64,000 nucleotides of DNA, from NCBI GenBank assembly GCA_945893185.1, contig CAMDDW010000003.1:43119-107118 (forward strand), read 5' to 3'. The notes under the pieces are model-generated. The model was given only the letters and a program-made list of their open reading frames with translations. It made no database searches and was not told the origin of the DNA. The stretch comes from Akkermansia muciniphila. Its GTDB lineage: Bacteria; Verrucomicrobiota; Verrucomicrobiia; Limisphaerales; UBA9464. Shown here piece after piece: positions 3,685-58,093 of this stretch. Position 1 is the stretch's first letter, and every line of letters starts with the position of its first letter. The position numbers and the translations under genes were made by a program.

Positions 3685-3714
3685 AAATTCAGACATCGTT
3701 CCCTGACTCTATTT
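3685..3714 (+). repeat. Degenerate copy of the RAYT-end repeat
   Basis: AAATTCAGACATCGTTCCCTGACTCTATTT vs consensus AAAATCGGAAATCGTTCCCTGACCCCGTTT. Confidence 0.75.
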
Positions 3715-3744
3715 CCAGTCATACTTGAGACCCAAAAGGTCCAC

Positions 3745-4299
3745 TTACGCAGCGGATTCGTTGCCAAAAACGGATCTCGCGACTCGATCCAGACGGGTCA
3801 ATGAACGGACTTTCCCATCTTTCGCCGTAAAATCGATGGTACTCAAACGCTCACGCAAGATCGCTTCCGAGACCATTCCATGGCGGATCAACGATGCGAC
3901 AAAGCTCAAGTCTTTCTCCCTACCAGCGACGAGCTTGCTCACGGCCAAGTCATGGGGTTCGAGGCACCATCCGATGTTGCCTCTCGTGTTCTCGTTTTCC
4001 ACTCGCACGAGGCGTTCCTGCCAACCAATTGGCAAAACGGCCGTAGTTTCATCCACACCATGGGCGTAGTAGCCGAAGGTTTCATGGAACATCGACCGCT
4101 CTCCAATCGAGCCCTCGATGACGATGGAAAGTTCCGGGCGATCTTTGGGGAACACGTCTGCCTCCATCGATACGAGCAGGTCTTCCGGCGCATTGGGAAA
4201 AGCCCCCAGAATAGACTGGCTGCCAATCACCACGATTTCACGGACATCCGCATTGCCGGCAGCGGCACGGATGAGGTGTTCAAGCTGGTTGCGGTTCAC
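3745..4299 (-). CDS. DUF6036-like nucleotidyltransferase, putative TA component
   Basis: QLEHLIRAA...VVIGSQSILG...SMEADV...HDLAVSKLVAGREKD. Confidence 0.7.
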   Translation of the reverse strand: MNRNQLEHLIRAAAGNADVREIVVIGSQSILGAFPNAPEDLLVSMEADVFPKDRPELSIVIEGSIGERSMFHETFGYYAHGVDETTAVLPIGWQERLVRVENENTRGNIGWCLEPHDLAVSKLVAGREKDLSFVASLIRHGMVSEAILRERLSTIDFTAKDGKVRSLTRLDRVARSVFGNESAA

Positions 4300-4609
4300 G
4301 AGTCGGAAAGCGCTTCAAGATTTCGGTTCGCTCAGACACCGACAAGAGACCGGCAAACGGGCTCGATTGCCTGAGACGGGTAGCCCGCTGATCGGTGCTC
4401 AGCAGTACCGAGATCACTTCGGGCAGCGGCCGCTGGAGCAAGGTCTGCCACTCGATCAATACGGGGCGTACACCGGGGGAACAGGTCTTTAACCACCGAT
4501 CCAGATTCGCCAAACCGCGATCCACCAATGCGGGATTCGCCAAGAGCTTCTCCGCCGTCCTCTGGTCCATGGCAAGACTTCTGAGGTCGATATTTTGATG
4601 GTTACTCAT
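4280..4609 (-). CDS. Small conserved partner of the nucleotidyltransferase (putative antitoxin)
   Basis: 109 aa, overlaps the downstream gene, LRQSSPFAG motif. Confidence 0.6.
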   Translation of the reverse strand: MSNHQNIDLRSLAMDQRTAEKLLANPALVDRGLANLDRWLKTCSPGVRPVLIEWQTLLQRPLPEVISVLLSTDQRATRLRQSSPFAGLLSVSERTEILKRFPTREPQPA

Positions 4610-4857
4610 GGCTGCTCAGTGTGGTTAAACCCTGTTCCGTGGCATGGCAAGCGTCCAAGACTTGCCCCGACTGGAGACCGGCAGGAAACTGAATGCGTCG
4701 AGAGACCTTCCGATTTTTTGTGTCAGCTTCGGTTCTCGGCGACGAACCGCCCGGTTCCAAGCCTGTCCGGAGGCAATGCGGGTCTCCATGGAATCTGCGC
4801 CTACGGCATTTCCAAGCTCCCGCTTGTCGAGGACGGGCATTCCACTCGCGTGAAGAA

Positions 4858-4915
4858 ATGACAACCGTCATGGAGGCCTTATACGAGCAACGTTGGTTCA
4901 AACAACCGGCGTCCA
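4858..4915 (+). pseudogene. Truncated copy of the 7037 antitoxin N-terminus
   Basis: MTTVMEALYEQRWFKQP vs MKTVVEAVHEQGWLKPL, with a shared ~135-bp upstream region. Confidence 0.55.
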
Positions 4916-4992
4916 AGAGGCGAGGCTGGACGATCATGAACTGCTACCCGCCGCTGCCACGCCGAAGCCCGCACGGTTGCACGACGGGTAAA

Positions 4993-5313
4993 TCAGCGTG
5001 CATCCTCCTGAACTGGGTCTCCCAGAGACACGGTGTGGGTTTTCAAATCCAGGTGAAACGTCCTGACGTCGTCATGCTCCAGCCTCAATCGAACCGTGCC
5101 CGTCACTACAGTCCCCACAACCTGATAATTGAGGACTTCCTGACCCACCTTTTTGACACCTCCAGGAGCGATCAAGTAGCGGTGGCCACCTCGCGGAAAG
5201 TAAGTGTCCGTATAGCCCTCAGGTAAGGCGTGTGTCCGGGGCAGCTGCATCACAACAAACAGCACGGCAACGAAAACAACTCCCACTGCGATGCTGAGAG
5301 TCTTCGATTTCAT
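4993..5313 (-). CDS. Hypothetical membrane/secreted protein (cassette gene)
   Basis: N-terminal hydrophobic helix; begins just after the attC core site GTTCGGC. Confidence 0.65.
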   Translation of the reverse strand: MKSKTLSIAVGVVFVAVLFVVMQLPRTHALPEGYTDTYFPRGGHRYLIAPGGVKKVGQEVLNYQVVGTVVTGTVRLRLEHDDVRTFHLDLKTHTVSLGDPVQEDAR

Positions 5314-5328
5314 GGCGCGTGCAAAGTG

Positions 5329-5396
5329 GCCGAACAACCAAACTCAGCGACGGCCTCGGCCGTGGTGGTGGTGCGCACGTTGCGCTCGGGTTAGGC
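5329..5396 (-). other. attC site
   Basis: Minus strand GCCTAAC...GCTGAGTTTGGTT-GTTCGGC, 68 bp, between two co-oriented small ORFs. Confidence 0.65.
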
Positions 5397-5405
5397 GCGC
5401 AGGGC

Positions 5406-5663
5406 TTATCGAACGCTGCGTCTAAAACCCCGCCATACCGTCCTAACCTCTTCTCGCAGGCCACCGACGAACCACCCCATGACGCTACCCAGGGCCGCCG
5501 GCAAATAAAACGCGACGAACAAGGCCAACGAGACCAAACCGACAATGGGAATGAACGCAGCCAGTAGAAAAATTAACGCGACAACCAGCCACGCGACTAG
5601 CCCCGGTCTTCGCCGTCTGCTTTCCAGCGGTCCCCTGAACCGGATTGGATATTGTGTATTCAT
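5406..5663 (-). CDS. Hypothetical small membrane protein (cassette gene)
   Basis: Two hydrophobic segments; lies between an attI-like site and an attC. Confidence 0.6.
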   Translation of the reverse strand: MNTQYPIRFRGPLESRRRRPGLVAWLVVALIFLLAAFIPIVGLVSLALFVAFYLPAALGSVMGWFVGGLREEVRTVWRGFRRSVR

Positions 5664-5677
5664 CAGCGTCTCAAGTC

Positions 5678-5957
5678 GCATCACGTTGTAGGGGCCACCT
5701 CAAAGCAACCTAATTACTTAACTGGTCGAATCTGTCAACGTCCCCGCTGGGCGGCAACAGGAATCTCTCCTCCCTCATCGATGAGCGGGTTAGGCCCGGC
5801 GTTTGGCAAGGCTCTGACAAAACCTCACTAGCCGTCAGGCACCGGAGAAACTACAAGTTCATTGTGTCAGAGTGGGCATCGATCCAGGTCCCACTTACAA
5901 AAAAGGGGTGAATCCAAAATAAAAAATCGTTGCCTGACCCTGTTTCTGACCCCGTTT
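5678..5957 (-). repeat. attI-like site + linker + MITE-like module, copy A
   Basis: ~275-bp direct repeat of 11228-11505; ends in two CTGACCC repeat cores. Confidence 0.8.
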
Positions 5958-6002
5958 ACGATTCGTTGCCAAGAGCGGATCGCGTGACTCGATCCAGAGA
6001 GG

Positions 6003-6437
6003 TCAGCGAGAGGTCTGCCCATCGTAGAGCCTATCACGAAGGTCGGGGGCAAAGGCCGCGAAATGCCGGTAATTGAGAGTGTGGATTCGGTCCGCACCGC
6101 ATTTCCGGGCGGCTGCCAACAAGAGGACATCGTAGATGGCTCCGCCTCTGGCTCCCACGGAAGCGGCGGTCTTGAGCGCGGCCGCAATCTCAGCCGGGGT
6201 CAACGACACCAGTGTCAGCCGCTTAGCCACATTAACGTACACCATCTCCGCCGCGATCGCGGGAGTCAGGCGGGAAGTGATTCGACCGCCCGTCAGGATG
6301 GCAAAACATTCCGCCAAGGAATGGGTCGAGGCATATCCATCCCGGGTAGATGAAAGCGCAGCCAAAGCCGTCTCATGGCCGGATTCATCCTCGACCATCG
6401 CGGCCAGAAGACTGGAGCTGTCGAAAAAGTCTCTCAC
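6003..6437 (-). CDS. vapC: PIN domain toxin
   Basis: FFDSSSLLA...AIYDVLLLAAA...TLNYRHF. Confidence 0.85.
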   Translation of the reverse strand: MRDFFDSSSLLAAMVEDESGHETALAALSSTRDGYASTHSLAECFAILTGGRITSRLTPAIAAEMVYVNVAKRLTLVSLTPAEIAAALKTAASVGARGGAIYDVLLLAAARKCGADRIHTLNYRHFAAFAPDLRDRLYDGQTSR

Positions 6438-6685
6438 GGCCGCAATTCCCTCGTGGCCGCGATCGCTGCTACGGCATCGAAGATTTTGCCTGTGCGCGGC
6501 ACCACCATCAGTCCGGATTTGCGTCGCAGCTCCGGCCCGGGCGGCTCCACCGGGGTCAGTTCCAACCGGTTGCCCACCAGAGCGAATCGCAGTACCGATC
6601 CAGACGAGAGATGCAGCAGCCTGCGGATTTCCTTGGGGATCACCAGCCGGCCACTTCCATCCATAGTAATCATGGTATCAGTCAT
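6434..6685 (-). CDS. AbrB/MazE-family antitoxin (start uncertain)
   Basis: ITMDGSGRLVIPKEIRRLLHL; ATGA overlap with the PIN gene. Confidence 0.85.
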   Translation of the reverse strand: MTDTMITMDGSGRLVIPKEIRRLLHLSSGSVLRFALVGNRLELTPVEPPGPELRRKSGLMVVPRTGKIFDAVAAIAATRELRP

Positions 6686-6784
6686 GGCATCAGTCATGGC
6701 ATTGTTCATGGTATAAACCGTGGCACCGACTATGGCAGGTGGCAATCCTGCTCAATTCGTGAGTTGGAGATAAACCTCTTTATG

Positions 6785-6832
6785 CCCTCCAACGGAGTCT
6801 TCGATGACAATGAAAAGTTCCGGGCGGTTCTG
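6785..6832 (-). pseudogene. Short remnant of a second DUF6036-like gene
   Basis: QNRPELFIVIEDSVG vs KDRPELSIVIEGSIG; DNA similarity to 4101-4147. Confidence 0.5.
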
Positions 6833-7036
6833 CCGGCCATACGACCTGCGGCAGCGCGAGCAACTCCTGCGTCTTGGTCCACGCCTGCACGCTGCACATC
6901 GTCAGCTTCGGTTCTTAGCGAGGATCCGCACGGTTCCGAGCTTGTCTGGCGGCAATGAGGGTCTCCACAGAATCTGCACCCATGGCGTTTTAAAGCTCCC
7001 GCTTGTCGAAGGTGGGCATCCCGTTAACTTGCCTGC

Positions 7037-7252
7037 ATGAAAACCGTCGTGGAGGCCGTACACGAACAGGGTTGGCTCAAGCCATTGAAACCCCTGTTGC
7101 TGCCGGCGCACTCCCGCGTGCAGTTGACGTTGACGGCGGAGGCTGCTGAAGACGGCGGACGTCAAGAATGGCTCATCCAATCGGAGCGCTCGCTGATGCA
7201 GGTGTGGGACAACCCGGCTGACGATGTCTTCAATGTGCTGCTCAAGAAATGA
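7037..7252 (+). CDS. AF2212/DUF104-like antitoxin
   Basis: MKTVVEAVHEQGWLKPLKPLLLP...WDNPADDVFN; overlaps the mazF-like gene. Confidence 0.7.
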   Translation: MKTVVEAVHEQGWLKPLKPLLLPAHSRVQLTLTAEAAEDGGRQEWLIQSERSLMQVWDNPADDVFNVLLKK

Positions 7253-7478
7253 TGTCGTCCTGCTGCCGATCCCATTCACAGACCTCAGCCGCAGCAAGGT
7301 CAGGCCCGCCATCGTTGTGGGATTAGGTTCGTTTCCTGGCGACCTCTTCGTGGTTCCGATCACGTCCCAAGCGTTCAACTGGGATGTTCCCGTCAAGGAA
7401 TGGCAACTGTCCGGGCTCAACGTGCCGAGCGAAGTGAAAGCGCAACTGGCGACAGGACCCCGTTGGCCGGCAACCTGA
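7224..7478 (+). pseudogene. mazF: PemK/MazF toxin, C-terminally truncated by a repeat unit
   Basis: DVVLLPIPFTDLSRSKVRPAIVV...VVPITSQ; the last codons come from the repeat at 7457. Confidence 0.75.
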
Positions 7479-7517
7479 ATCTCTCTTCCCTTATCGATTA
7501 GAGTGAGTCAGGGGTCC
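7457..7517. repeat. ~60-bp GACCCC...GGGGTC linker unit, copy D
   Basis: Closely similar to 10390-10448. Confidence 0.8.
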
Positions 7518-7741
7518 TTTGAGTTGCCAATCCGTCGGGTGTTCATGGATGTCGGCCCGTATCGCGGGATAAACCTCGGTGAAACCGTCGTCTTATCGGC
7601 TGTCGTAGGCGTCCAAGCGTGCCCAAACTGGCTCGAATTCATCGTCCCAAGCATCGCACTGGACGAGAGCATCCATCTCGCGGGCTGCCCGGTTACGGGA
7701 CCTGTCCCGGCATCCATTGCGGTCCATCGACCGCTGTGATC

Positions 7742-7760
7742 AACTAGTCAAAGACTGGTT
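7742..7760. promoter_or_regulatory. Probable TA autoregulatory operator
   Basis: Near-palindrome AACTAGTC-AAA-GACTGGTT just upstream of the phd-like gene. Confidence 0.5.
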
Positions 7761-7778
7761 AATTTAGGAACAAACACC

Positions 7779-8042
7779 ATGGCCACCATCACCGCTTTTG
7801 AAGCCAAGACCCGGTTCGGCGAACTCCTCGACCGCGTCGGCCGCGGCGAGGAAATCGTCATCACCCGGCACGAGAAGCCCGTCGCCCGCATCGTTCCCGA
7901 AGGTCTGCGGAACCTAGAGCATGTTCGTCAGGCGGTATCGGCGCTGCACGAGGTCCGCCGCCGGATCGCCAGCCGGACCAAGGGACGCGGAAAGCTGTCG
8001 GACGCCGATGTCCGGTCCGCCATCGAAGAAGGACGGCCCTGA
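7779..8042 (+). CDS. Phd/YefM family antitoxin
   Basis: ITAFEAKTRFGELLDRVGRGEEIVITRHEKPVARIVP. Confidence 0.92.
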   Translation: MATITAFEAKTRFGELLDRVGRGEEIVITRHEKPVARIVPEGLRNLEHVRQAVSALHEVRRRIASRTKGRGKLSDADVRSAIEEGRP

Positions 8043-8458
8043 TGGACCGCCTGATCGTGGACGCATCAGTGGCCATCGCGTGGGTGCATCCCGGCCAGGC
8101 GACCCCGGAAACGGACGCGTTGCTGGCCGAGATCAACGAGGGTGCCATCTTGGTCGTTCCCGCCCTCTGGCCGGTTGAGACGGCCAATGCACTGGTGGTG
8201 CTCGAACGCCGGAAGAAGCTGACGGCGGAGGAGCGCGACGACGCTCTGGCCGCGCTGCGCGGACTGGCATTCGAAACCGACCATGAAATGTCGGTCCTGG
8301 CCTTCACCAAACTGGCGCAACTGGCCGCCGATAATGCCTTGAGCGTCCATGACGCCGCCTACCTAGAACTGGCCGTGCGCTTGAAGATACCCCTCGCCTG
8401 CAAGGACGGTCCGCTGCGCGAAGCGGCAAAACGCCGCCGGGTTCCATTGCTGCCCTGA
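8042..8458 (+). CDS. vapC: PIN domain toxin
   Basis: LIVDASVAIAW...LSVHDAAYLELA...LACKD. Confidence 0.92.
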   Translation: MDRLIVDASVAIAWVHPGQATPETDALLAEINEGAILVVPALWPVETANALVVLERRKKLTAEERDDALAALRGLAFETDHEMSVLAFTKLAQLAADNALSVHDAAYLELAVRLKIPLACKDGPLREAAKRRRVPLLP

Positions 8459-8822
8459 GGCGGGGCCGGTGGCGTAAGGTTTCAGTTCCGTGGCATACTG
8501 CGCCCCGGAGGACTGTCCATGTCGGTCGAATTTCGGGAGTGGAATGGATTGCGGATGAGGTTCTTAGCAGGCGCGTCCGAACCGGTGTGGCTGATGGCCG
8601 AAATTGCCCGAACTGCCGCAGGTCCCCGAAACAAACTTCAGACCACGATACCGCCGCCGTAGCCGGGAACCGCCGGTCTTCCGTGATTGAACAATTCAAC
8701 CGAGCACGGAGTTCCGGCGACGGTCATCACGGTCCCGAAGAGAAGGTTTGCCCGATGTCGCCCGTTTTCCGTTCCCGTTCGCGCGTTGCGTCCCCACGGC
8801 GAATTCACTCATCCCCGGGCTT

Positions 8823-8888
8823 GTTTAACCAAGGGTGTAGTTGCTGGCTTCGCTCCGCTTCGCAGCAATACACCCTTTATTGTTAGGC
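8823..8888 (-). other. attC site (last of the array)
   Basis: Minus strand GCCTAAC-AATAAAGGGGTGTATTGCTG...CAGCAACTACACCCTTG-GTTAAAC; long imperfect palindrome. Confidence 0.8.
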
Positions 8889-8898
8889 GATGGTCTCA

Positions 8899-9222
8899 TC
8901 ACTTAATGTCCTCAAAGACTCTGCAGCAGCCATAAACTGCAAACACGATGAAAAGCCCGATGAGCGTCAAACCCAGAAAGCCCATGACTCTGTCCAAAAT
9001 CGGTCGCGGCTTCAAAGTCTGTGGGGGGTGAACGTCTGCCACCACTATTGTCTGAAAATCGAAACCTGCCTCACTGCCAATCGTAGCCTGCCCCTTCTCC
9101 AGCGCCTCATCAATCTTGCCTCGTAGATACACCAGCCCGTCGCGACTCGCCGTGAACGACTCCGACGGGTCGCCAAATCTGTCATAGGCTGTTCCCCAAG
9201 CTGGTGGGATGTCTTTCTTCAT
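8899..9222 (-). CDS. Hypothetical protein with C-terminal TM helix (cassette gene)
   Basis: ORF bounded by attC sites. Confidence 0.7.
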   Translation of the reverse strand: MKKDIPPAWGTAYDRFGDPSESFTASRDGLVYLRGKIDEALEKGQATIGSEAGFDFQTIVVADVHPPQTLKPRPILDRVMGFLGLTLIGLFIVFAVYGCCRVFEDIK

Positions 9223-9236
9223 GCGCGTGCGAAGTC

Positions 9237-9309
9237 GCCTAACGCTTGAACTAAGTGGCCACATCAATCGCGAAGCGATTGATTGGTCCGCTTGAGTGAA
9301 CTATTAGGC
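9237..9309 (-). other. attC site
   Basis: Minus strand GCCTAAT...ATCAATCGCTTCGCGATTGAT...GTTAGGC, 73 bp. Confidence 0.85.
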
Positions 9310-9315
9310 CACATG

Positions 9316-9660
9316 TCAGAGCGCATCACACAAGCTCTCCAATCCCTCGGCTCGAAATCGAGCGAGAATTTCTGGGTCAGTGCCGCAGTAGCGGATAGCT
9401 GCGATGCACGAACATCGTGCTGCCTCTATAACAAGAGCAAGCTCGTCTGCCGTCTCTGGTTGCTTCTCGACGCGACAATGCGTCGGGCACGTTTCTCCGC
9501 ACCTGCGCTGAAGCGTTTCCTGACTCCACGTGATATTGGCTGGCGCCAACTCCGGTGGCAGCGCGCAAAGGAGACACTGGTCCTTGATGACGTAAAATGG
9601 ACCGGGCGCGTTGTCCGGTTCTCGCTCGAACTTCGGGCTAACTAGCGGGTAATCGCGCAT
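9316..9660 (-). CDS. Ferredoxin-like protein (cassette gene)
   Basis: NAPGPFYV...CLLC...AP...KQPET..E...SCIAAI pattern. Confidence 0.65.
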   Translation of the reverse strand: MRDYPLVSPKFEREPDNAPGPFYVIKDQCLLCALPPELAPANITWSQETLQRRCGETCPTHCRVEKQPETADELALVIEAARCSCIAAIRYCGTDPEILARFRAEGLESLCDAL

Positions 9661-9673
9661 AGTGCGTAATGTG

Positions 9674-9799
9674 GCCTAACGACAGAGGTGAGCGACCGCC
9701 GCTGGCCGGGAAGGTGGAGCCCACGAGGCGCTCTCGAACTGCCTCCCAGCCTCGAACGGAGAAGCGGGGCAGCGGTTCGTCTCCACCGACTGGTTCGAT
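9674..9799 (-). other. attC site
   Basis: Minus strand ATCGAAC...GCGGTCGCTCACCTCTGTC-GTTAGGC, 126 bp; ATCGAAC is complementary to the cassette start GTTCGAT. Confidence 0.9.
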
Positions 9800-9807
9800 G
9801 TCTTGTT

Positions 9808-10314
9808 TCAGTGCCATGGCGACTTGGTAGGAGAGCCACTCGAACCGGCGTATCCCCATTCTGATTTCCAACCGCGTAGTCCGCCAATCTCGGTCTCGTG
9901 GAAACCTTGAACCCTTCCGTAGTCGGATGCAACCTCGAACACAACTTTTACCGGCTGCTTGCCCTTGTCACGGAGATGAGCAGCCAGCTCGTCTGAATAC
10001 TCTCCGATGTAGTGGCCAGGAAAATCCACAAACGTCAGAACAACCTCCGACTCCTTCATGCCGTTGGAGGAACTCGGTTTGGTCTCCCACGACATCATGT
10101 ATTCGCGAACCTCCTTCTGATCTATGAATGGCCCGACACCAGTCAGGAACAATGTGAAAAGCACTGTAAAGAGCAGCGCGGAAAAGAGAGTCACGTTCCC
10201 TTTCTTGAATCTTGTATTGGCCAACCAACACACGAGCAATGAAAGGCCAATAAACAAGGGCAGGCCTCCGATAAACAAGAACGGGCGGACGTCGATGTAG
10301 GCGAGGAGCGTCAT
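9808..10314 (-). CDS. Hypothetical membrane protein (first cassette)
   Basis: Two N-terminal TM helices; starts about 19 bp after the core site. Confidence 0.75.
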   Translation of the reverse strand: MTLLAYIDVRPFLFIGGLPLFIGLSLLVCWLANTRFKKGNVTLFSALLFTVLFTLFLTGVGPFIDQKEVREYMMSWETKPSSSNGMKESEVVLTFVDFPGHYIGEYSDELAAHLRDKGKQPVKVVFEVASDYGRVQGFHETEIGGLRGWKSEWGYAGSSGSPTKSPWH

Positions 10315-10326
10315 TTTCCGGTCTTC

Positions 10327-10440
10327 ATCGAACGTTGTTTAGACCGCCTAAACGCAGTCTAATTTTCCCATTTTGACGAAATTATCAATGACCCCGTTGG
10401 CCGGCAACCTGAATCTCTCCTCCCTCATTGATGAGCGAGT
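10327..10440 (-). other. attI-like site + linker, copy B
   Basis: Minus strand TTAGACTGCGTTTAGGCGGTCTAAACAAC-GTTCGAT; compare the class 1 attI1 end CTAAAACAAA-GTT. Confidence 0.7.
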
Positions 10441-10601
10441 CAGGGGTCCGGGAACGATTTCCGAATTTGACTCAGGCGGGTGTCAGCAACTTTCGCCCAA
10501 TGCCTGGGCAAGAGCCTGTTTAGGTTGCGGGTCCCTTTACCGAGTTCTGGGCAAAGGGATCTGGTGCTTCCAAAATCGGAAATCGTTCCCTGACCCCGTT
10601 T
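10441..10601 (+). mobile_element. ~160-bp MITE/REPIN-like element with RAYT-type ends
   Basis: Inverted terminal repeats; interior homologous to 54176-54337 and 57932-58093. Confidence 0.8.
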
Positions 10602-10663
10602 GCGGAGCGCGGTCCGTGGCAATTCGATTCATTCGCTGTAGCGCTGAGCCCGGATCAGCGATT

Positions 10664-10921
10664 TTATTCATAATGGTAGCGAACTTGCGCAACCTTAATG
10701 ACATTATCTTCAACTCTGTAAACCAACCGATGTTCGTCCGTAATTCGACGAGACCAAAATCCACTTAAGACATGCTTTAATGGCTCAGGCTTACCGATGC
10801 CTTCGTAGGGATTGCGAGAAATATCCCTCAGTAAATCATTAACCTTTTTGAGAATCCTCTTATCAAAATTCTGCCAATATACGTAATCTTCAAATCCACG
10901 AGATGAAAACTGAATGTTCAT
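10664..10921 (-). CDS. yoeB: Txe/YoeB toxin
   Basis: GIGKPEPLKHVLSGFWSRRITDEHRLVY. Confidence 0.95.
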   Translation of the reverse strand: MNIQFSSRGFEDYVYWQNFDKRILKKVNDLLRDISRNPYEGIGKPEPLKHVLSGFWSRRITDEHRLVYRVEDNVIKVAQVRYHYE

Positions 10922-11178
10922 TTCATGAGTTCGTCGATGGACTTCGTAATACCACCGCTTCCCTTTAAATCCGAAATTGAATCAAGAAGGCGACGGGCGT
11001 TTGCAGGCGAACGAAGAAGATAAGCAGTCTCCTCAAGTGATTCATAATCCTCAAGCGATATCATCACAACGGCTTGATCGCGATTACGAGTGATGATCAC
11101 TGGATCATGATCCAAGCAAACACGATCCATCGTTGACGCAAGGCTTTCCCGTGCAGCGGTGTAGGTGATCGCTTTCAT
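10918..11178 (-). CDS. yefM: YefM antitoxin
   Basis: ITYTAARESLA...SLEDYESLEETAYLLRSPANARRL. Confidence 0.95.
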   Translation of the reverse strand: MKAITYTAARESLASTMDRVCLDHDPVIITRNRDQAVVMISLEDYESLEETAYLLRSPANARRLLDSISDLKGSGGITKSIDELMK

Positions 11179-11179
11179 A

Positions 11180-11197
11180 TGGACAATAACCTGTACA
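11180..11197 (-). promoter_or_regulatory. YefM-YoeB operator
   Basis: TGTACA-GGTTAT-TGTCCA: two TGTACA-type cores 12 bp apart, as in the E. coli yefM operator. Confidence 0.6.
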
Positions 11198-11221
11198 TGC
11201 CGCCACAAATGTCAAGTTTTC

Positions 11222-11505
11222 TTCCAACGATCGTTGTTGAGGCCACCTAAACGCGGCCTCATTTCCCCGGTTTTCGAACGTCTCAACTCCCCGTTGGGCG
11301 GCCACCTGAATCTCTCCTCCCTCATTGATGAGCGGGTCAGGCCCGGCGTTTGGCAAGTCTCTGAGGCAACCTCCCGACCCGTCAGGCACCGGAGAAACTA
11401 CCAGTTCATTGTGTCAGAGTGGGCACCGATCCAGGTCCCGCTGACAAAAAAGGGGTGAATCTAATTCGGAAATGGTTCCCTGAGCCCGTTTTTGACCCAT
11501 TTTTT
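11222..11505 (-). repeat. attI-like site + linker + MITE-like module, copy C
   Basis: Direct repeat of 5678-5957; minus strand TGAGGCCGCGTTTAGGTGGCCTCAACAAC-G. Confidence 0.8.
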
Positions 11506-11575
11506 GTTTTCCTGGGTTTGGGGATAGTTGCTGGCAGCTCTTGATGGAGATCTCCGGGTGGCTACGCTTCGGTTC

Positions 11576-22780: not shown

Positions 22781-22841
22781 GGTGGAAGAATGCGTTTCAG
22801 CGAACCGGACGCACTCAAAGCCTCAACCGGTTCAACAACTT

Positions 22842-51711: not shown

Positions 51712-51782
51712 AAGGGGTCAGGAAAGGGAGGAAAGGCGTCAGTTCTTGATATTGTTACAAAAGGGGTCAGTTCTTGATATTG
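51711..51782. repeat. Second family of GGGGTCAG end repeats (tandem)
   Basis: AAAGGGGTCAGG, AAAGGCGTCAGTTCTTGATATTG, AAAGGGGTCAGTTCTTGATATTG. Confidence 0.75.
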
Positions 51783-51783
51783 G

Positions 51784-51945
51784 TTACTCCCCGCCCAGCT
51801 TCCTCTGGCGATACAAGAAATGGTTCAGATAAGCGCGGGTGCCCATCGTCAGCCGCTCGGCGATCCACCCCACCGTCATCGTCGTCTCCGCCCGCAAGCG
51901 CGCCGCCAAAGCCACCTTCACTGAATCCCCGTTGGAAGCGTGCAG
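51784..51945 (-). pseudogene. C-terminal remnant of a second RAYT-type transposase
   Basis: GDSVKVALAARLRAETTMTVGWIAERLTMGTRAYLNHFLYR; aligns with GDLRRVAVAWAVYRRTSLRQSWIADRLGL of the intact RAYT. Confidence 0.75.
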
Positions 51946-51988
51946 TTTATCCGAGATCGAAGGCCAGGATTTCCAACGGAAGCTTCAG

Positions 51989-52017
51989 AATTCGGAAATC
52001 GTTCCATGACCCCGTTT
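51989..52017 (+). repeat. RAYT-end repeat copy
   Basis: AATTCGGAAATCGTTCCATGACCCCGTTT. Confidence 0.85.
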
Positions 52018-52054: not shown

Positions 52055-52479
52055 GTGAAGAAGTCGTTTTATTCTCTCGATGCCGAAAAGTGGCAGATGT
52101 TCAATGACATACCCTATGATAGATGTCCCTGGCTTGTGTGGGGAACTCCCGCCGTGGGCACGGTGAAATCGTCATCCGAAACAGGCGAGCCTATCTTGAG
52201 GGTGAACCAATTTGCTGGCGGCGCGGAGTTTTCGGAAATAATCGAACGTGATGGATTCGACTTCGTAAAGGTTAAGATTTTAATTACTGGGATTCTGATC
52301 TTGGAATTAAATATCTACCAAGCGAAGAAATAGTGATCGAATTGGCCGAAATCGACTTTCCGGGAACTGAAAATGAATGGATAGAATCATTGAATAGATT
52401 CAAAGAAGGAGACAGTGAGTTTATCGAATGGATGATTAGTTTCGCGAAGATTAGATTAACCAGCTCAAGGCGACCCTGA
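52055..52479 (+). pseudogene. AT-rich hypothetical gene, apparently frameshifted near 52280
   Basis: The 92-aa ORF continues in a second frame (NYWDSDLGIKYLPSEEIVIELAEIDF...) to a TGA before the attC. Confidence 0.5.
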
Positions 52480-52509
52480 AGAGTCGATGGGATTTCGAGT
52501 GACATGTAC

Positions 52510-52569
52510 CGCTAACACTCACATCCAGCGGACTTCGCTTTGCTACGCCGCTGATGTGAAGCTTTCGCT
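52510..52569 (+). other. attC site with degenerate core
   Basis: CGCTAAC-ACTCACATCCAGCGG...CCGCTGATGTGAAGC-TTTCGCT. Confidence 0.7.
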
Positions 52570-52585
52570 GAAAAGATTGAGTCTG

Positions 52586-52840
52586 ATGCCACGATTCCTG
52601 CAAAGAGAGTATTTTCGGCACACGCGCCAGCGACCCGACCGGGTCGGAATCAAGGATGAATGGATTGAGCGCGTCATCGAACATCCCGAATCAGAGAAGA
52701 TTTAATCAGATGGACGCATTCGACGATGGGCACGGATTTCTGACTCTTAGATTCGGGCATTACGAGTTATTCTTTTGGGAGACTCCCCAACCGTACACAA
52801 TCCTTTCTTTGACCGTGATTATGAGGATAAAAACAAATGA
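52586..52840 (+). pseudogene. Putative toxin (DUF4258-like) with two in-frame stop codons
   Basis: EWIERVIEHPESEKI*SDGRIRRW...*IRALRVILL...TVHNPFFDR; stops at 52703 and 52748; ATGA overlap with the next gene. Confidence 0.65.
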
Positions 52841-53061
52841 AAATCAAATATTTTGAAGATACCGGCACCGCTCTCCTTGAGTTTGGGGGTGGTACTCCTG
52901 CCGAGACCCGGGAGCTATCGGAGGACATTTATTTGGGCTTAGACGAGTCGGGCCATGTGGTTTCCAACACCGTAGAGCACGCAAGCATCCGAGGTGATTT
53001 ATCTGAATTCAGCTTCAAGAGAATAAACAAAGCGGACGAGGTCGTGGAGCCAACGCGCTAA
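52837..53061 (+). CDS. DUF2283-like putative antitoxin
   Basis: MKIKYFEDT...LDESGHVV..TVEHAS. Confidence 0.7.
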   Translation: MKIKYFEDTGTALLEFGGGTPAETRELSEDIYLGLDESGHVVSNTVEHASIRGDLSEFSFKRINKADEVVEPTR

Positions 53062-53089
53062 CGCGCGCGGTTGACGACTAATGTTGGCC
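53031..53089 (+). other. attC site (59 bp)
   Basis: AGCGGAC-GAGGTCGTGGAGCCAACGCGC...GCGCGCGGTTGACGACTAAT-GTTGGCC. Confidence 0.75.
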
Positions 53090-53158
53090 TCCGAAGTCCC
53101 CCCGGCGAGCCGAAATCACCTGTTGCGGGGGCAGCACGACGTCGGCAAGATCACCTTC

Positions 53159-53365
53159 ATGCGACATGCCATCATCTATCCTGGCGAGGATGGTTTCTGG
53201 GTTGCGGAGTGTCCCAGCTTGCCGGGTTGCATTTCCCAGGGGGAGACCCGCGAGGCTGCGATCAGCAACATCCGTGAGGCCATTGAGGGCTACGTCCGTG
53301 CGCTCCGGGAGGATGGTATCGAGGTTCCTGAGGAGCGATTTGAGGCACTTCTGGTCGCTGTATGA
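53159..53365 (+). CDS. hicB: HicB family antitoxin (short)
   Basis: WVAECPSLPGCISQGETREAAISNIREAI. Confidence 0.92.
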   Translation: MRHAIIYPGEDGFWVAECPSLPGCISQGETREAAISNIREAIEGYVRALREDGIEVPEERFEALLVAV

Positions 53366-53583
53366 GCAAACTTCCTCAGGTGTCAGGCCCCGAGTTGGTC
53401 CTAGCACTTGAGAAGCTTGGGTTTTCGGTCCGTCGTCAGCACGGCAGCCACATCATTATGCGACGAGATGACCCATACGCGCAGACTGTAGTCCCAAACC
53501 ACCGTCAGATCGATCGAGGCACTCTGCGCGCCATCCTCAGGCAGATCGGGATTACTCCTGAGCATCTCACGTCGTTATTGTAG
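53362..53583 (+). CDS. hicA: HicA family toxin
   Basis: LEKLGF..RRQHGSH...VVPNH..IDRGTLRAILRQ. Confidence 0.92.
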   Translation: MSKLPQVSGPELVLALEKLGFSVRRQHGSHIIMRRDDPYAQTVVPNHRQIDRGTLRAILRQIGITPEHLTSLL

Positions 53584-53589
53584 GAAATA

Positions 53590-53677
53590 GTCCAACCATT
53601 GCGTCCTGCGAACGGCGGTTGAGCCCACTGTTCCAGGACTGACCCGATCTCCGTCGTCGCAGACCCAGGGGTTAATC
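53590..53677 (+). other. attC site
   Basis: GTCCAAC...GTCCTGCGAACGGCGG...CCGTCGTCGCAGAC...GTTAATC, 88 bp. Confidence 0.75.
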
Positions 53678-53685
53678 CTTATATT

Positions 53686-54168
53686 ATGCACACACGCTAT
53701 CTAAGAATCTCGATTGCCGCCGCTTTCTTTCTGTCGGTGCTTTATTCCATCCACGGAAGCGAGCCGCCGGCTCAGTGGAAGAAAGTCGATGCGAAGCGGT
53801 TTTCATTTTTTATTCCGCCGGACATGAAACTCGTTCCGACCCGCGGAATCGACTCCTACGTTGAGAGCTACCGCGGAACGAACATCGACTTGAGCTTCGA
53901 CTACGGGCCTTACCCTGATTCCCTGAACCCCTATAAGAACTTCCCTGGCTCCGTCACGAAGACATTGAAAATCGACGGCAAAGAGGCGCTACAAGTGTCA
54001 TTCACCAATTCAAGCACGTCTGGATACCGTTTCGATCAGGTTATCGCAATCCACTTTCGCGACTTGGGTGACGGAGGAAACAAGCAGACGCTGTGGGCGA
54101 CATGCCGCACCAAAGAACATTATTCGGCTGTTGAACAGATATTCTCTACTCTTCGTTTTAACAAGTGA
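53686..54168 (+). CDS. Hypothetical secreted protein (cassette gene)
   Basis: Signal peptide; starts 8 bp after the attC core. Confidence 0.75.
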   Translation: MHTRYLRISIAAAFFLSVLYSIHGSEPPAQWKKVDAKRFSFFIPPDMKLVPTRGIDSYVESYRGTNIDLSFDYGPYPDSLNPYKNFPGSVTKTLKIDGKEALQVSFTNSSTSGYRFDQVIAIHFRDLGDGGNKQTLWATCRTKEHYSAVEQIFSTLRFNK

Positions 54169-54175
54169 CACAGGG

Positions 54176-54337
54176 AACGGGGTTAGGGAACGATTTTCGA
54201 ATTTGACTCAGGTTGGGGGTCAGGTTCTGCCGTTCAATGCCTCGGTGATTGGCTTTTTAGCTTGCGGAGCCCGTTACCGAGCCCGAGCCGAGAGAACCTA
54301 TGGGAGAAAAATCGGAAATCCTTCCTTTCTCCCGTTT
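54176..54337 (+). mobile_element. ~160-bp MITE/REPIN-like element
   Basis: Inverted RAYT-type ends (right end degenerate); homologous to 10441-10601. Confidence 0.8.
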
Positions 54338-54418
54338 CACTAACAAAGCACTGAGCTTAAACGTTGGTCGAAGTGTGTAAGAATGTGTAAACAACAAGAA
54401 AGTAAGAGACCAGAAGCA

Positions 54419-54775
54419 ATGAGAAGTATCTTGGTGATTCTGTGTATATTGGCTGCGTGCGGTTGTACAGCCAACCAGCGGTTGGGCGTGAAGCTCGATC
54501 AGCCTACCTATTGGCGTAGCCCGAACGGAGAGCGATTTGTAGCACGCCACGGATGGCTGTCCGATGACAGTCTCAGTTTTGTCAAAGTAACGATGCCCGA
54601 TGGCCGACAGTGGACGTTACCACGAGCGTCGGCTGCTTCCGGTGTGCGATACACCGATGAACATACATTGGTGTGGTGGGAACATCAGGGCACGGTGCGT
54701 GTGGATGTCCGACGTGACGATGGAGAGTGGGAGGAGGGGCGTTGGGAATTGCGGCCCTATCCGCAGGTACACTAA
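54419..54775 (+). CDS. MliC-family lysozyme-inhibitor-like lipoprotein (cassette gene)
   Basis: Lipobox LAAC; TLPRASAASGVRYTD...WWEH. Confidence 0.7.
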   Translation: MRSILVILCILAACGCTANQRLGVKLDQPTYWRSPNGERFVARHGWLSDDSLSFVKVTMPDGRQWTLPRASAASGVRYTDEHTLVWWEHQGTVRVDVRRDDGEWEEGRWELRPYPQVH

Positions 54776-54778
54776 TCT

Positions 54779-54826
54779 GCCCAACAAGCCGTGGATGGCA
54801 ACTCCCACTAGCTTCTTTTTCCTCTA
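54779..54826 (+). other. Left half of an attC site, cut off by the RAYT element
   Basis: GCCCAAC-AAGCCGTGGATGGCAAC... begins 3 bp after the stop codon; no right arm found. Confidence 0.55.
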
Positions 54827-54856
54827 GGAACGAGACCAAGGAACGATTTCCGAAGG

Positions 54857-56027
54857 AACGGGGTCAGGGAACGATTTCCGATTTTGAATCAGGCGGGATC
54901 TAGCTACTGTTAACCCATGCCTCGACAAGTCCGCATTGAGTTTGAGGGCGCCCTTTACCATGTGATGGCACGTGGCAATCAGCGCAACCGCATCTTTGCC
55001 TCGCCCGACGGGGGCGATGAGAGCCTGTTCTTGGAAACCCTGGGCGAATGCTGCGAGCGTTCCGGCTTCCGAATCTGGGCATGGGTCCTGATGGGCAATC
55101 ATTACCACCTCCTCGTCGAGACACCCTCGGCCAATCTGGTCGCCGGCATGGCTTGGCTCCAAAACACCTACACGCGACGCTTCAACTCCCGCCACCGCCA
55201 ATGGGGACGCCTTTTCGGCGACCGCTACAAGTCGGTCCTCATTGAATCGGGCAGACCCGACGAAACGGGCGGCGACTTATACCTGCAGACCCTTCTCGAC
55301 TACATTCACCTCAATCCAGTTCGAGCCGGGTTGGTGCCGACCGAATCATTCCAGGGGCTGATGGACTATCCTTGGAGCAGCCTCGTCCAGGCCTACGCCG
55401 TGGCACCCGAGGCACGGGCTCCGTGGATGGCGGTGACCGACGGTCTCGCGCTCTTCCGATGCGAGGACAGGGCGGCGGATCGCCGACAGTTTGTCGAACG
55501 TCTCGAAGGCCGATTGAAGGCTGAAGCCGCGGAAGCGTGCGGTTTATCCGAGATCAAAGGCCAGACTCTGCGGAGCACCTTGAGGAAAGGTTGGTATTGG
55601 GGAGGAGAATCCTTCAAGGAGACGCTTCTTCAAAAACTCGAAGGTCTCAAAGGGAGCTCCATGCCTGTGGCGAAGGATTTCCGCAGCAGCGATCAGGCAC
55701 GGGACCATGACCACTGGGACGGTGAACGGATCATCTCCGAGGCAGTGCAACAGTTCGCCCTGAAAAGCGGCCGGCGCGAGGAGTTTACGGCGCTGCCGCG
55801 TGGAGATCTACGGCGGGTCGCGGTGGCTTGGGCCGTATATCGGCGCACCTCGCTGCGGCAATCATGGATCGCAGACCGACTCGGATTGCGCAGCGGTGAC
55901 AACGTCTCGGCGCAGGTCCGGAAACTCTCCACACGGCCAAGCGAGGAACTTTCACCCGAGATCCAAGCGTGGATGAAGGCCTTCGAATGAAGCCAGCCAA
56001 AATCGGAAATCGTTCCCTGACCCCGTT
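54857..56027 (+). mobile_element. RAYT element with perfect 30-bp inverted ends
   Basis: AACGGGGTCAGGGAACGATTTCCGATTTTG (54857-54886) and reverse complement (55998-56027); extra degenerate copy at 54827-54854; no target duplication seen. Confidence 0.85.
54917..55990 (+). CDS. REP-associated tyrosine transposase (Y1 HUH, IS200-like superfamily) with C-terminal HTH-like region
   Basis: MPRQVRIEFEGALYHVMARGN, HUH motif NHYHL, LFGDRYKS, DYIHLNPVRAG, YPWSS. Confidence 0.92.
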   Translation: MPRQVRIEFEGALYHVMARGNQRNRIFASPDGGDESLFLETLGECCERSGFRIWAWVLMGNHYHLLVETPSANLVAGMAWLQNTYTRRFNSRHRQWGRLFGDRYKSVLIESGRPDETGGDLYLQTLLDYIHLNPVRAGLVPTESFQGLMDYPWSSLVQAYAVAPEARAPWMAVTDGLALFRCEDRAADRRQFVERLEGRLKAEAAEACGLSEIKGQTLRSTLRKGWYWGGESFKETLLQKLEGLKGSSMPVAKDFRSSDQARDHDHWDGERIISEAVQQFALKSGRREEFTALPRGDLRRVAVAWAVYRRTSLRQSWIADRLGLRSGDNVSAQVRKLSTRPSEELSPEIQAWMKAFE

Positions 56028-56064
56028 TCATCTTGAGACCAAAATATCCAACCGCTAAATCACC

Positions 56065-57864
56065 ATGAAACCAACTGTCTTTCTGGCTGCAGTGTTGATG
56101 TTCGCCCTCTCAACGCACGCTTCAGTAAAACCCCTTAAGGTGTTTATACTAGCCGGACAATCAAACATGGAGGGGCATGCCGCAATCAGCACCTTTGACT
56201 ATATCGGCAAGGATCCACTCACGGCACCCCTTCTCAAGGAAATGCGTAAATTGGATGGAAGTCCACGCGTCTGTGATCAGGTCTGGATGTCTTATTTGAC
56301 CGGACCTTACGATGGCAGCGCCAATGGCGAAGGGTTGGGAAAATTGACCGCCGGTTTTGGGGCACGTGGGGATCAACCCACCAAGATGTGTGGCAATATT
56401 GGTCCTGAGTTCACCTTCGGAATCTATATTGAAAAAGAGCTCAATGAACCAATTTTGATCATCAAGACCGCCTGGGGCGGCCGGTCGCTCAACACCGAAT
56501 TCCGCCCGCCCAGCGCCGGGCCCTACATGCTGCCCAAGGTGATTCAGGAGGAGTGGGACAGGCATCCTCAGGGCGCACATGGGATTCCCAAACTAGAGGA
56601 CCGCAAGAAATGGAGAGAAGAAAAGGATGCCGCCTCAGGCGTGTTTTACCAAATGATGATTGACCATGTGAAAATGGTCCTGGCAGATCCCAAACGCGTC
56701 TGTCCGGCCTATGACGCGAAGGATGGCTACGAGTTGGCTGGTTTTGTCTGGCTTCAGGGATTTAATGACTTAGTCGATGGGACGACGTATCCCGGCCCCG
56801 ACAAACCCGGAAAATACGACGTCTATTCGGACCTGCTGGCCAAGTTCATTCGCGACGTTCGGAAAGATCTGTCCGCCCCAAAGATGCCGTTTGTCATCGG
56901 CGTACTAGGAGTCGGCGGGATGGGCGATAATCAAGTTTTCCGAAAAGCCATGGCTGCACCGGCAGACATGCCCGAGTTCAGGGGCAATGTCGTTGCGGTT
57001 GAGACGGCCCCCTTCTGGGATCATGCCATCGAGGTCGCGGAATCCAAGCAAGGTAAGTACAACGATATCGTTAGCGTCGCGAAAACACTGAAAACCGACG
57101 GCACGATCAACAGGGATCGGAAATGGGATGGCTACTGGAAGCCTGTCGGCAAGCCTCTGCCAGAAGAACGGATCTGGCGCTTCGCTTCGGTCGATGCCAC
57201 CGAGAAGAAGGACAAACTGAAGAAATATGACGCCAGACGCTTCCGTGACGTGACGCTGCCAGCCGGAATTGAAAATTGGCACCTACCTCAATTTGATGAC
57301 AGCAAATGGGCCGAAGGCAAGGCACCCATCGGGAAGGGCTCATGGAGACACAGCGGCGTTACTCTCAAGAACTTTCCCTCAACCTGGGGAGAGGGCGAGT
57401 TTCTGCTGATGCGTACAACCTTTGAAGTCGAGGACACCCATTACGATTCTTATCGCATCGCGGTTTTGGCAAGACAGGGATTCCATGTTTATTTAAACGG
57501 ACAAAAGATACACACCTACATCTGGTGGCAGGACAAGCCGCAATACAGTTCTGTCGTCCTCGAAAAGGAAATGATCAATCATTTGAAGAGGGGGAAAAAT
57601 GTATTGGCAGTCTACGCCAATGACCAATACGACCTTGATTCCCCGGAACATTACGCCGCGCTGGATGTACAAATTGAGGGTATCACCAAAGCAGACCAAG
57701 AAAAGCTCGACCTCGCCTTGGAGGAAGTCCTTTCCGCCAGAGATCGGGAAGCCCTCAAAGGCGCTTCCAATGGCGGATACCACTATTTTGGTAGCGCAAA
57801 GATCTTCGCCCAAATGGGCAAGGCGTTTGCGGAAGCAATTGCGAATCAGCTTAAATCTAAATAA
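56065..57864 (+). CDS. Sialate O-acetylesterase-like (SASA) protein with an inserted domain
   Basis: FILAGQSNMEG, GPEFTFG, IIKTAWGG, WLQGFND, GYHY. Confidence 0.82.
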   Translation: MKPTVFLAAVLMFALSTHASVKPLKVFILAGQSNMEGHAAISTFDYIGKDPLTAPLLKEMRKLDGSPRVCDQVWMSYLTGPYDGSANGEGLGKLTAGFGARGDQPTKMCGNIGPEFTFGIYIEKELNEPILIIKTAWGGRSLNTEFRPPSAGPYMLPKVIQEEWDRHPQGAHGIPKLEDRKKWREEKDAASGVFYQMMIDHVKMVLADPKRVCPAYDAKDGYELAGFVWLQGFNDLVDGTTYPGPDKPGKYDVYSDLLAKFIRDVRKDLSAPKMPFVIGVLGVGGMGDNQVFRKAMAAPADMPEFRGNVVAVETAPFWDHAIEVAESKQGKYNDIVSVAKTLKTDGTINRDRKWDGYWKPVGKPLPEERIWRFASVDATEKKDKLKKYDARRFRDVTLPAGIENWHLPQFDDSKWAEGKAPIGKGSWRHSGVTLKNFPSTWGEGEFLLMRTTFEVEDTHYDSYRIAVLARQGFHVYLNGQKIHTYIWWQDKPQYSSVVLEKEMINHLKRGKNVLAVYANDQYDLDSPEHYAALDVQIEGITKADQEKLDLALEEVLSARDREALKGASNGGYHYFGSAKIFAQMGKAFAEAIANQLKSK

Positions 57865-57931
57865 CCGCCGTAGAACCATAAAAACACCGTCAATACTTCG
57901 ATAATTTCTGAACCGAATGCAGCCAGTCAAG

Positions 57932-58093
57932 GTACGGAGTCAGGGAACAATTTCCGAATTTGGCCAGACGGGTTCCCTCGACTCGGACTCCGTAAATGGT
58001 TCCGCAACTTGGATGGCCGATTGACGAGACGTTAAGCGGCAAAGCCTGATCCTCAACCTGAGTCAAAATCGGAAATCGTTCCCTGACCCCGTT
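57932..58093 (-). mobile_element. ~160-bp MITE/REPIN-like element, reverse orientation
   Basis: Reverse complement aligns end to end with 54176-54337. Confidence 0.8.

Follow-up and report, generated by a model that had tools for sequence, protein, structure and literature searches.

The window, by which we mean the whole 64-kb stretch analysed here, corresponds to positions 43119–107118 of contig C3 (CAMDDW010000003.1) in an Akkermansia muciniphila assembly of 3.32 Mb with 141 contigs, 72% completeness and 60% G+C. Two hot spots are located in it, hot spot 1 at about 3.7–11.5 kb and hot spot 2 at about 51.7–58.1 kb, and both carry copies of a 30-nt repeat. Two such copies in hot spot 2 enclose a gene for a Y1 transposase with an HUH motif that resembles the REP (repetitive extragenic palindromic)-associated tyrosine transposases (RAYTs), and hot spot 1 holds a small array of integron cassettes with attC sites, headed by copies of a unit, here called D3, that resembles an attI site. 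The cargo of hot spot 1 (3745–11208) comprises a DUF6036 nucleotidyltransferase pair, MazE/PIN, AF2212-like/PemK, Phd/PIN and YefM/YoeB modules, and small open reading frames (ORFs) that belong to no family. An earlier note on this DNA had joined the two hot spots into one system, in which the RAYT family builds integron platforms; we prefer to keep them apart.

The cassette array and its attI-like units

Sites of the attC type were sought with a covariance model built from 12 attC sites that adjoin IntI genes, taken from five further genomes of the order. The model owes nothing to the present genome and was run with the Infernal filters off (the default filters missed the best site). On the 64-kb window it finds attC 9237–9309 on the minus strand with 25.2 bits (E 2e-4), a textbook hairpin with a folding z of -4.0, and attC 9674–9796, also on the minus strand, with 18–21 bits (E 0.016 at 18 bits); 18 bits is by itself weak evidence for an attC, as two matches with this score elsewhere fall in coding DNA. 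The stretch 8823–8888 forms a hairpin (z -3.6) with the ends GCCTAAC...GTTAAAC and agrees with the logic of the cassette boundaries, and its model score of 10.8 bits is not counted as support. All remaining matches in the window have an E above 0.3, including those in hot spot 2, where the best one reaches 10 bits (E 2.2). An architecture-based attC finder, which recovered canonical sites in relatives, reports a single credible site genome-wide, C3:52355–52427, which is 9237–9309 of the window. A further candidate at 5337–5401 was rejected as an attC since it does not fold (z +0.8). The earlier note had placed attC arrays in each of the hot spots, and of this the part on hot spot 1 stands, as a small but genuine cassette array, while hot spot 2 has no such array.

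The three cassettes are consecutive on the minus strand, and each begins with TT after a G and ends in an attC with an R'' box complementary to the 5' end of that cassette. Cassette C1 (9680–10332) contains an ORF at 9808–10314 and attC 9674–9799, and its 5' end, (G)TTCGAT, is complementary to the R'' box ATCGAAC of its own attC. Cassette C2 (9243–9679) contains an ORF at 9316–9660 and attC 9237–9309, and is followed by cassette C3 (8829–9242) with an ORF at 8899–9223 and the attC-like hairpin 8823–8888, whose R'' box GCCTAAC is complementary to the 5' sequence GTTAGGC of the cassette. With our own covariance model, hot spot 1 thus contains two or more attC sites spaced by 4 kb or less, with intI absent from the vicinity, as is typical of attC-site clusters that lack an integron integrase (CALINs). 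A 180-nt duplication (4722–4901 and 6901–7080, 78% identical) is located upstream of the AF2212-like antitoxin gene and of a decayed copy of this gene (about 4860–5010), indicating segmental duplication within the array.

For comparison we used 23 genomes of the genus (24 with the present one), of which 16/23 carry the repeat, with completeness of 61–97%. A homologue of hot spot 1 is present in the congeners G215, G219, G222, G202, G210 and G206, with flanks that are 90–95% identical and consist of the EamA gene and the DUF6036 pair on one side and of the sequence from window position 13979 onward on the other. Matches to the attC model with E below 1e-3 occur in all five congener loci scanned (61.3, 43.9, 40.9, 33.7, 27.2, 27.2, 24.9, 24.3 and 21.3 bits), and the cassette content at the locus varies among the genomes, with some cassettes shared.

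D3 is a unit of about 125 nt that occurs four times in hot spot 1, once truncated, in all cases on the minus strand. D3a (10334–10449) is conserved up to ...TCTAAACAAC, and the crossover G|TT lies at 10333/10332, directly before the first cassette. D3b (11215–11341) is followed by the YefM/YoeB module, and the same downstream sequence is found in 4/4 genomes; its junction lacks the GTT. D3c (7456–7517) is truncated, being cut off by the AF2212-like/PemK module, and synteny breaks at 7455/7456. D3d (5670–5794) is a diverged copy. By blastn D3 is not found elsewhere in the genome, and it is present in 7/23 congeners and, with three mismatches, once in 400 other genomes of the order.

In all nine copies of the a and c type, taken from the window and from five of the six congener loci, the conservation ends at AAC|GTT and is followed by unrelated sequence, and the first cassettes differ in 5/5 genomes at D3a and in 4/4 genomes at D3c. 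In the four cases that were read, the R'' box in the attC of the first cassette complements the GTTNNNN of the junction. D3 is called attI-like because it is conserved to AAC|GTT, has variable cassettes beyond this point and shows the R'' complementarity; it behaves like an attI, and we infer from these junctions that it may be one. In this respect the earlier note was right that attI-like entry sites with an array and no integrase are located in hot spot 1, and an end of the repeat family abuts each of them. D3 itself does not fold (z -0.4 to -1.7) and has no match to the attC model, and was therefore discarded as an attC. The idea that D3a and the DNA beyond the adjoining miniature element constitute one attC split by the insertion was also given up, as the outer flank is not conserved in the congeners, and a promoter suggested by eye in D3 was dropped after a promoter scan showed no sigma-70-like site there.

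The repeat family and its RAYT-like element

Repeat copies were counted at up to eight mismatches, with five shuffled 30-mers as control. The window has 12 copies, starting at 3684, 5915, 10440, 10571, 11461, 51987, 54176, 54307, 54857, 55998, 57933 and 58064, and these are the twelve listed in the earlier note, each within 0–2 nt of where it had placed them. No copy is present from 11.5 to 51.9 kb of the window. The confinement to the two hot spots that had been noticed is therefore correct for the window; it does not extend to the genome, where 61 copies are distributed over 17/141 contigs (shuffled 30-mers gave 0–1), 11 of them identical to the reference copy. About 60 copies are grouped in 17 clusters across the assembly, 15 of these on other contigs. 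The repeat is found in 16/23 congeners versus 0/17 genomes of other genera.

The autonomous element (54857–56027, plus strand) has inverted ends at 54857–54886 and 55998–56027 that are perfect over 30/30 nt, as claimed before, and surround the RAYT-like gene (54917–55990, plus strand). The 357-aa product matches Pfam Y1_Tnp (PF01797) with E 1e-9. It scores 57.9 bits against NCBIfam REP_Tyr_transpos (NF047646), which is below the cut-off of 80, and 16.6 bits against the IS200 model NF033573 with a cut-off of 55, so that it falls outside IS200/IS605, and a PDB sequence search gave no match. An HUH motif, H62-Y63-H64, and Tyr129 in the motif DYIHLNPVRAGL can be read from the translation. Going by the motifs of RAYT proteins, Tyr129 is presumably the catalytic tyrosine. 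The terminal repeat holds GGGGTCAG at 54860–54867, which fits the motif GGGGWSAS published for terminal inverted repeats (TIRs) of TIRYT genes, RAYT-like genes bounded by such repeats. The element copy in hot spot 2 is intact and probably active, and we file the element as a TIRtron with miniature derivatives rather than as a classical REP/RAYT system.

The protein has 26 tblastn matches in the genome, with one intact close copy and the next one only 40% identical; therefore several diverged families coexist in this genome. A full-length close homologue is absent from the 23 congeners, one of which has a C-terminal fragment of 130 aa, and an intact enzyme of this family is thus present in 1/24 genomes of the genus. 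Homologues with 69–83% identity occur in other Verrucomicrobiales metagenome-assembled genomes (MAGs), and 13 loci with homologues were examined. An inverted repeat core is located on both sides of the gene in 4/13 loci, which are all the loci where both flanks are present; among the homologues with 69–83% identity it lies about 60 nt before the start codon and, inverted, about 10 nt after the stop. At least one core copy is found in 9/13 loci, and none in the four loci with 46–57% identity. In two homologue loci (L069 1538–1721 and L070 4073–4182) the core occurs downstream of the gene in 3–5 tandem direct copies spaced by 26–54 nt, an arrangement like that of BIMEs (bacterial interspersed mosaic elements) that is not seen in the present genome.

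From the repeat copies in the genome, 22 inverted pairs can be formed, mostly of 161 bp, some of 255–624 bp and one of 1171 bp, the last being the gene-bearing element; 18 copies are solitary. By blastn the 161-bp units are one family, 86–89% alike and present on at least seven contigs, and the units of about 420–450 bp align to the first 400 nt or so of the gene-bearing element and are therefore internal-deletion derivatives of it. The 161-bp units are short, non-coding, bounded by TIRs, present in many copies and derived from an autonomous element, as are miniature inverted-repeat transposable elements (MITEs). No fold is formed by a single 30-mer (z +0.2 and +0.5), whereas the 161-nt unit pairs along its whole length into one long hairpin (z -6.4; 0/200 shuffles). 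At about half of the ends the outer 13 nt or so are repeated in tandem once or twice more, and these extra copies were seen in the element flanks instead of a clear target-site duplication. The tetranucleotides GTAG and CTAC are absent from the 30-mer as read from the sequence.

Three 161-bp units are located in the window. One, which can also be described as a REPIN-like doublet (10440–10600), adjoins D3a and is 86–91% identical to sequence at the same place in four congeners, another (54176–54336) has one decayed end, and the right end of the third (57933–58093) overlaps the 3' end of the AcrB-like ORF 58063–61416 on the minus strand. The last ten codons or so and the stop of this 1117-aa AcrB-family ORF are inside the inverted end of the MITE (58063–58093), so that this gene owes its 3' end to the insertion. 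Two older units, here called X type, are decayed MITE-like elements of about 150 nt; one (5795–5944) ends in the repeat copy 5915–5944 and adjoins D3d, and the other (11342–11490), 86% identical to it, ends in copy 11461–11490 and adjoins D3b. A solitary decayed copy with six mismatches (3684–3713, plus strand) is located upstream of the EamA transporter gene and is conserved in congeners. Another solitary copy (51987–52016, plus strand) is joined to the 3' fragment of a second RAYT-like family (51760–51935), and this fragment has full-length (176-nt) matches of 92–93% identity on contigs C4, C8, C44, C80 and C88 and a partial one on C6. The cargo of hot spot 2 (52055–57864, plus strand) consists of HicB/HicA, an MliC-like lipoprotein, a SASA-type esterase and small ORFs, with neither attC nor D3.

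Relation of the array to the repeats and to an integrase

No tyrosine recombinase is encoded in the window, in agreement with the earlier note, and the best match in the assembly to the IntI model TIGR02249 (cut-off 265 bits) scores 88.6 bits and belongs to a XerC-like gene beside clpC on contig C1. IntI above the cut-off is found in 68/201 genomes of the order, where many of the genes are located at contig ends, and in 3/24 genomes of the genus, all three without the repeat. Among the 16 repeat-bearing congeners, eight of them 90–97% complete, there is none. In the six genomes inspected no intI gene or pseudogene adjoins the array. The 664-aa ORF at 11528–13522, at the place expected for intI, matches no family and resembles a helical-repeat membrane protein; the 352-aa recombinase of congener G215, which the present genome lacks, shares 25% identity with IntI and is a tyrosine recombinase of the generic sort; and none of the ORFs between MITEs in the congeners matches a recombinase family. 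A 40-aa IntI-like fragment is located 358–477 nt past the right end of the window (C3:107476–107595, minus strand). It is 47.5% identical to residues 96–135 of a congener IntI (tblastn E 0.003; TIGR02249 E 2.7e-4), was not found in the 23 congeners, and is regarded as a weak side observation. On one side of it there is a repeat copy with a C-terminal RAYT fragment, and on the other a module of two genes (L038 610–1127), a putative BrnT/BrnA toxin-antitoxin pair.

The tie between the repeat and the array depends on how the copies are counted. Taken singly, 5/60 copies are no farther than 5 kb from the attC/D3 locus, which makes up 0.47% of the assembly, an apparent enrichment if the copies are independent (P about 1e-5), but only one of the 17 clusters coincides with this locus (P about 0.08). 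In about 280 kb round the 15 clusters on other contigs, scanned with the attC model and filters off, nothing exceeds 18.2 bits, and the two 18-bit matches there are inside coding DNA and have no AAC/GTT boxes. The 13 RAYT-homologue loci of other genomes (61 kb) gave a best attC score of 13.6 bits. The repeat is thus spread genome-wide and, once its clustering is allowed for, shows no enrichment at attC sites, which is an outcome that the earlier note had named as refuting its proposed system. That the RAYT family builds, copies or moves integron platforms is not supported, since the repeat is genome-wide, attC is absent at the other clusters and D3 is present at one locus.

Given what is established on the repeat census, the element structure, the attC sites, the conserved locus, the D3 junctions and the absence of IntI from the assemblies, the reading that we favour, with a probability of roughly 70%, is that hot spot 1 is a CALIN-type integron relic that was invaded long ago by a dispersed TIRYT/MITE family, and that two separate entities overlap here. 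One of them would be the mobile family, in which a RAYT-like Y1/HUH tyrosine-transposase element is bounded by the repeat of 30–37 nt as its terminal inverted repeat, with the putative source copy in hot spot 2, about 45 kb away, and with derivatives of about 160 bp and 420–450 bp scattered in clusters. The other would be a sedentary array without integrase, having three to four attI-like heads and attC cassettes on the minus strand. An integron integrase should have placed the cassettes at the AAC|GTT end of D3, and this enzyme would either have disappeared or be encoded on DNA that the assemblies do not contain and act in trans; loading by IntI in trans, as already suggested, or in the past is the natural reading, given that there is no IntI in the genome or in the repeat-bearing congeners. 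The elements next to D3 would be old residents common to the congeners, placed where intI normally sits, which would promote local rearrangement and would neither have made nor spread the array, and recombination between MITEs may have contributed to the loss of intI. At the place that one MITE occupies in the window, two congener loci (L052 and L049) have extra ORFs enclosed by a pair of elements of the repeat family, one of them a full MITE and the other a partial or single copy. This arrangement fits deletion between the elements and points to recombination between them having reshaped the array.

Several points weigh against this reading. Every D3 abuts an end of the repeat family at one fixed junction (4/4 here and six congener loci), which contradicts the expectation for random insertion, and the position is filled in some cases by the MITE type and in others by the X type, which are unlike each other. 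The 161-bp MITE precedes D3a, the old decayed element of about 150 nt precedes D3b and D3d, and only a tip of about 10 nt precedes D3c. The adjacency fits one ancient insertion at an ancestral head followed by duplication of the head together with the tip; it could alternatively reflect elements landing next to existing ends, a preference that is suggested by the nested end copies occurring genome-wide. It is not proof that the enzyme moves D3. Furthermore, D3 has no similarity to the sequence upstream of intI in either of the IntI-bearing congeners compared, and the integrons of these two are at other loci, so that an ancestral intI at this locus is not demonstrated. Cassette turnover has gone on without a visible integrase, because the first cassettes differ, the junction of MITE and D3a is shared, and IntI is found in 0/16 repeat-bearing congeners. 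On the side of the methods, the attC model represents one subfamily of long attC sites and may overlook sites that have diverged, such as any in hot spot 2, the scan with filters off covered about 345 kb of the 3.32-Mb assembly, and all genomes are MAG-grade assemblies, prone to losing integrase genes and plasmids.

The last point bears on the possibility that intI is simply unassembled, on an unbinned contig or plasmid, and that hot spot 1 is part of a working split integron. An assembly of this completeness and fragmentation, the position of many IntI genes of the order at contig ends and the turnover of first cassettes, which implies recent integrase activity, all agree with it, as does the 40-aa IntI-like fragment past the end of the window; we still find it rather unlikely, as none of the 16 repeat-bearing congeners has an IntI over the cut-off even though half of them are nearly complete, and as the 40-aa remnant is absent from congeners and weakly supported. 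That D3 is no attI at all and instead a conserved leader or a regulatory module associated with cassettes that happens to precede them, or else the 3' portion of an atypical attC, with the array an ordinary CALIN fragment split from its integron by rearrangement, we judge improbable. It would agree with the lack of similarity between D3 and the intI-upstream DNA of IntI-bearing congeners or any of 19 IntI loci of the order, with D3b leading into the same toxin-antitoxin module in 4/4 genomes and lacking GTT at its junction, and with a strong Shine-Dalgarno-like run and short ORFs that can be read in D3. It does not explain why the conservation of the a and c types stops exactly at AAC|GTT with unrelated cassettes beyond, why D3 has no attC-like fold or model match, or why R'' and the 5' end are complementary in the first cassettes, as the rule for cassettes has it.

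Two further explanations give the transposase a direct part. In the milder one, which we hold to be a long shot, a TIRYT end or enzyme replaced intI at the head of the array, and might duplicate heads or supply single-stranded DNA (ssDNA) processing for cassette entry; if functional, this would connect HUH transposases with recombination in integrons. The stronger one, that of the earlier note, has a RAYT-like enzyme acting on folded ssDNA copy or move attI-like sites and cassette blocks, or shuffle the cassettes itself, giving mini-integrons with no resident integrase. The fixed junction of all D3 heads with repeat-family ends speaks for it, as do the three to four heads at one locus (two to three in congeners) and the different first cassettes in five genomes without detectable IntI. 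That IntI and TnpA-REP both act on folded ssDNA is in the same vein, and here the accessible part of Corneloup et al. 2021 (PMC8266576) mentions integrons only as an analogy for proteins working on folded ssDNA; our literature search found no paper joining RAYT/TIRYT elements with integron arrays. Against it, D3 is at one locus versus 17 repeat clusters, the gene-bearing hot spot 2 has neither attC nor D3, attC was not found at the other clusters or the 13 homologue loci, and the intact enzyme is in one genome of the genus, yet the arrays vary in congeners that lack it. The junctions moreover show the classical IntI chemistry (G|TT, with R'' complementing the 5' end of the cassette). A RAYT-built platform would, if true, be a gene-capture system of a new class; this is not supported by the evidence, and we consider it very improbable.

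What the favoured reading, an old CALIN-type relic overlapped by a TIRYT/MITE family, offers is a clear case of a genus-wide array without integrase that keeps recognisable attI-like heads and has first cassettes differing by species. It makes a long-standing question on CALINs, whether the cassettes are still mobilised and by what, testable in Verrucomicrobiales, and it puts on record a TIRYT/TIRtron family together with its miniature derivatives and a source copy that is probably active.

Other repeats of the window and known systems

Additional repeats are located between the hot spots. A second MITE family is represented at 13521–13796 by a 276-bp copy with perfect 31-nt inverted ends; the family has at least five full-length copies of 95–100% identity and 26 blast matches on nine contigs, and the copy is absent at the homologous place in the congener locus L050, which makes it an insertion polymorphism. 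A 129-nt repeat (14378–14506 and 14639–14767, 98% identical) belongs to a dispersed family with 65 blast matches in 26 contigs, and 125-nt direct repeats (22841–22965 and 23049–23173, 93% identical), 208 nt apart, have partial matches in 15 other contigs. The segments 14885–17455, 39332–42121 and 44961–47183, and likewise 17475–18923 and 47173–48576, are paralogous gene pairs with stretches of 62–79% identity; they account for the repeat families D8, D9, D13, D17 and D18 and are outside the finding. Rfam at its gathering thresholds recognises no family in the window.

The known systems are compared here as far as the accessible parts of their descriptions go. RAYT/REPIN systems, reportedly the subject of work by Nunvar (2010) and by Bertels and Rainey (2011), share with the present family the single-copy Y1 transposase flanked by inverted copies of a dispersed repeat, and doublets that fold as a long hairpin. 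The present unit differs in being non-palindromic (z about 0) and lacking GTAG, and the protein in scoring below the NCBIfam RAYT cut-off (57.9 versus 80). RAYTs are single-copy and vertically kept, according to what is accessible of Bertels et al. 2017 (10.1101/119735), and the present gene is patchy in the genus and not vertically kept. A closer counterpart is the TIRYT, defined in the accessible text of Di Nocera et al. 2013 (BMC Genomics 14:522, PMC3733652) as a RAYT-like gene whose flanking TIRs have no relation to GTAG REPs; the motif GGGGWSAS is common to many of these TIRs, and some of them make up repeat families that are arranged in dimers and clusters. The present element agrees in its RAYT-like Y1/HUH gene, its non-REP TIRs with GGGGWSAS (here GGGGTCAG), and its moderately abundant singles, dimers and clusters. 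It differs from the TIRYTs described there in being found in Verrucomicrobiales, in a C-terminal extension of about 200 aa on the protein, in the deletion derivatives of about 160 bp and 420–450 bp, and in having the intact gene in just one of the 24 genus genomes.

As for integrons, hot spot 1 has attC sites on one strand in common with a complete integron and lacks intI, and its D3 units are candidates for the attI. Sedentary chromosomal integrons with a decayed intI, for instance in Xanthomonas (10.1101/2025.06.18.660453, as far as its text is accessible), likewise have a fixed locus and cassettes that vary by species, but the array described here has no intI gene or pseudogene beside it in the genomes inspected. 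According to the accessible parts of Cury et al. 2016 (NAR 44:4539, PMC4889954), CALINs are abundant and half of them are in genomes without IntI, a nearby intI pseudogene is found for only 5% and a neighbouring insertion sequence (IS) for 38%, and IS-mediated rearrangement is one proposed origin. The array of hot spot 1 resembles CALINs as presented there in having two or more attC sites on one strand inside 4 kb, with intI missing both from the surroundings and from the genome, a cargo of toxin-antitoxin modules and small ORFs, and transposable elements inside and beside the array; unlike them, it keeps several attI-like heads at a locus conserved in the genus, with a first cassette that differs among the genomes.

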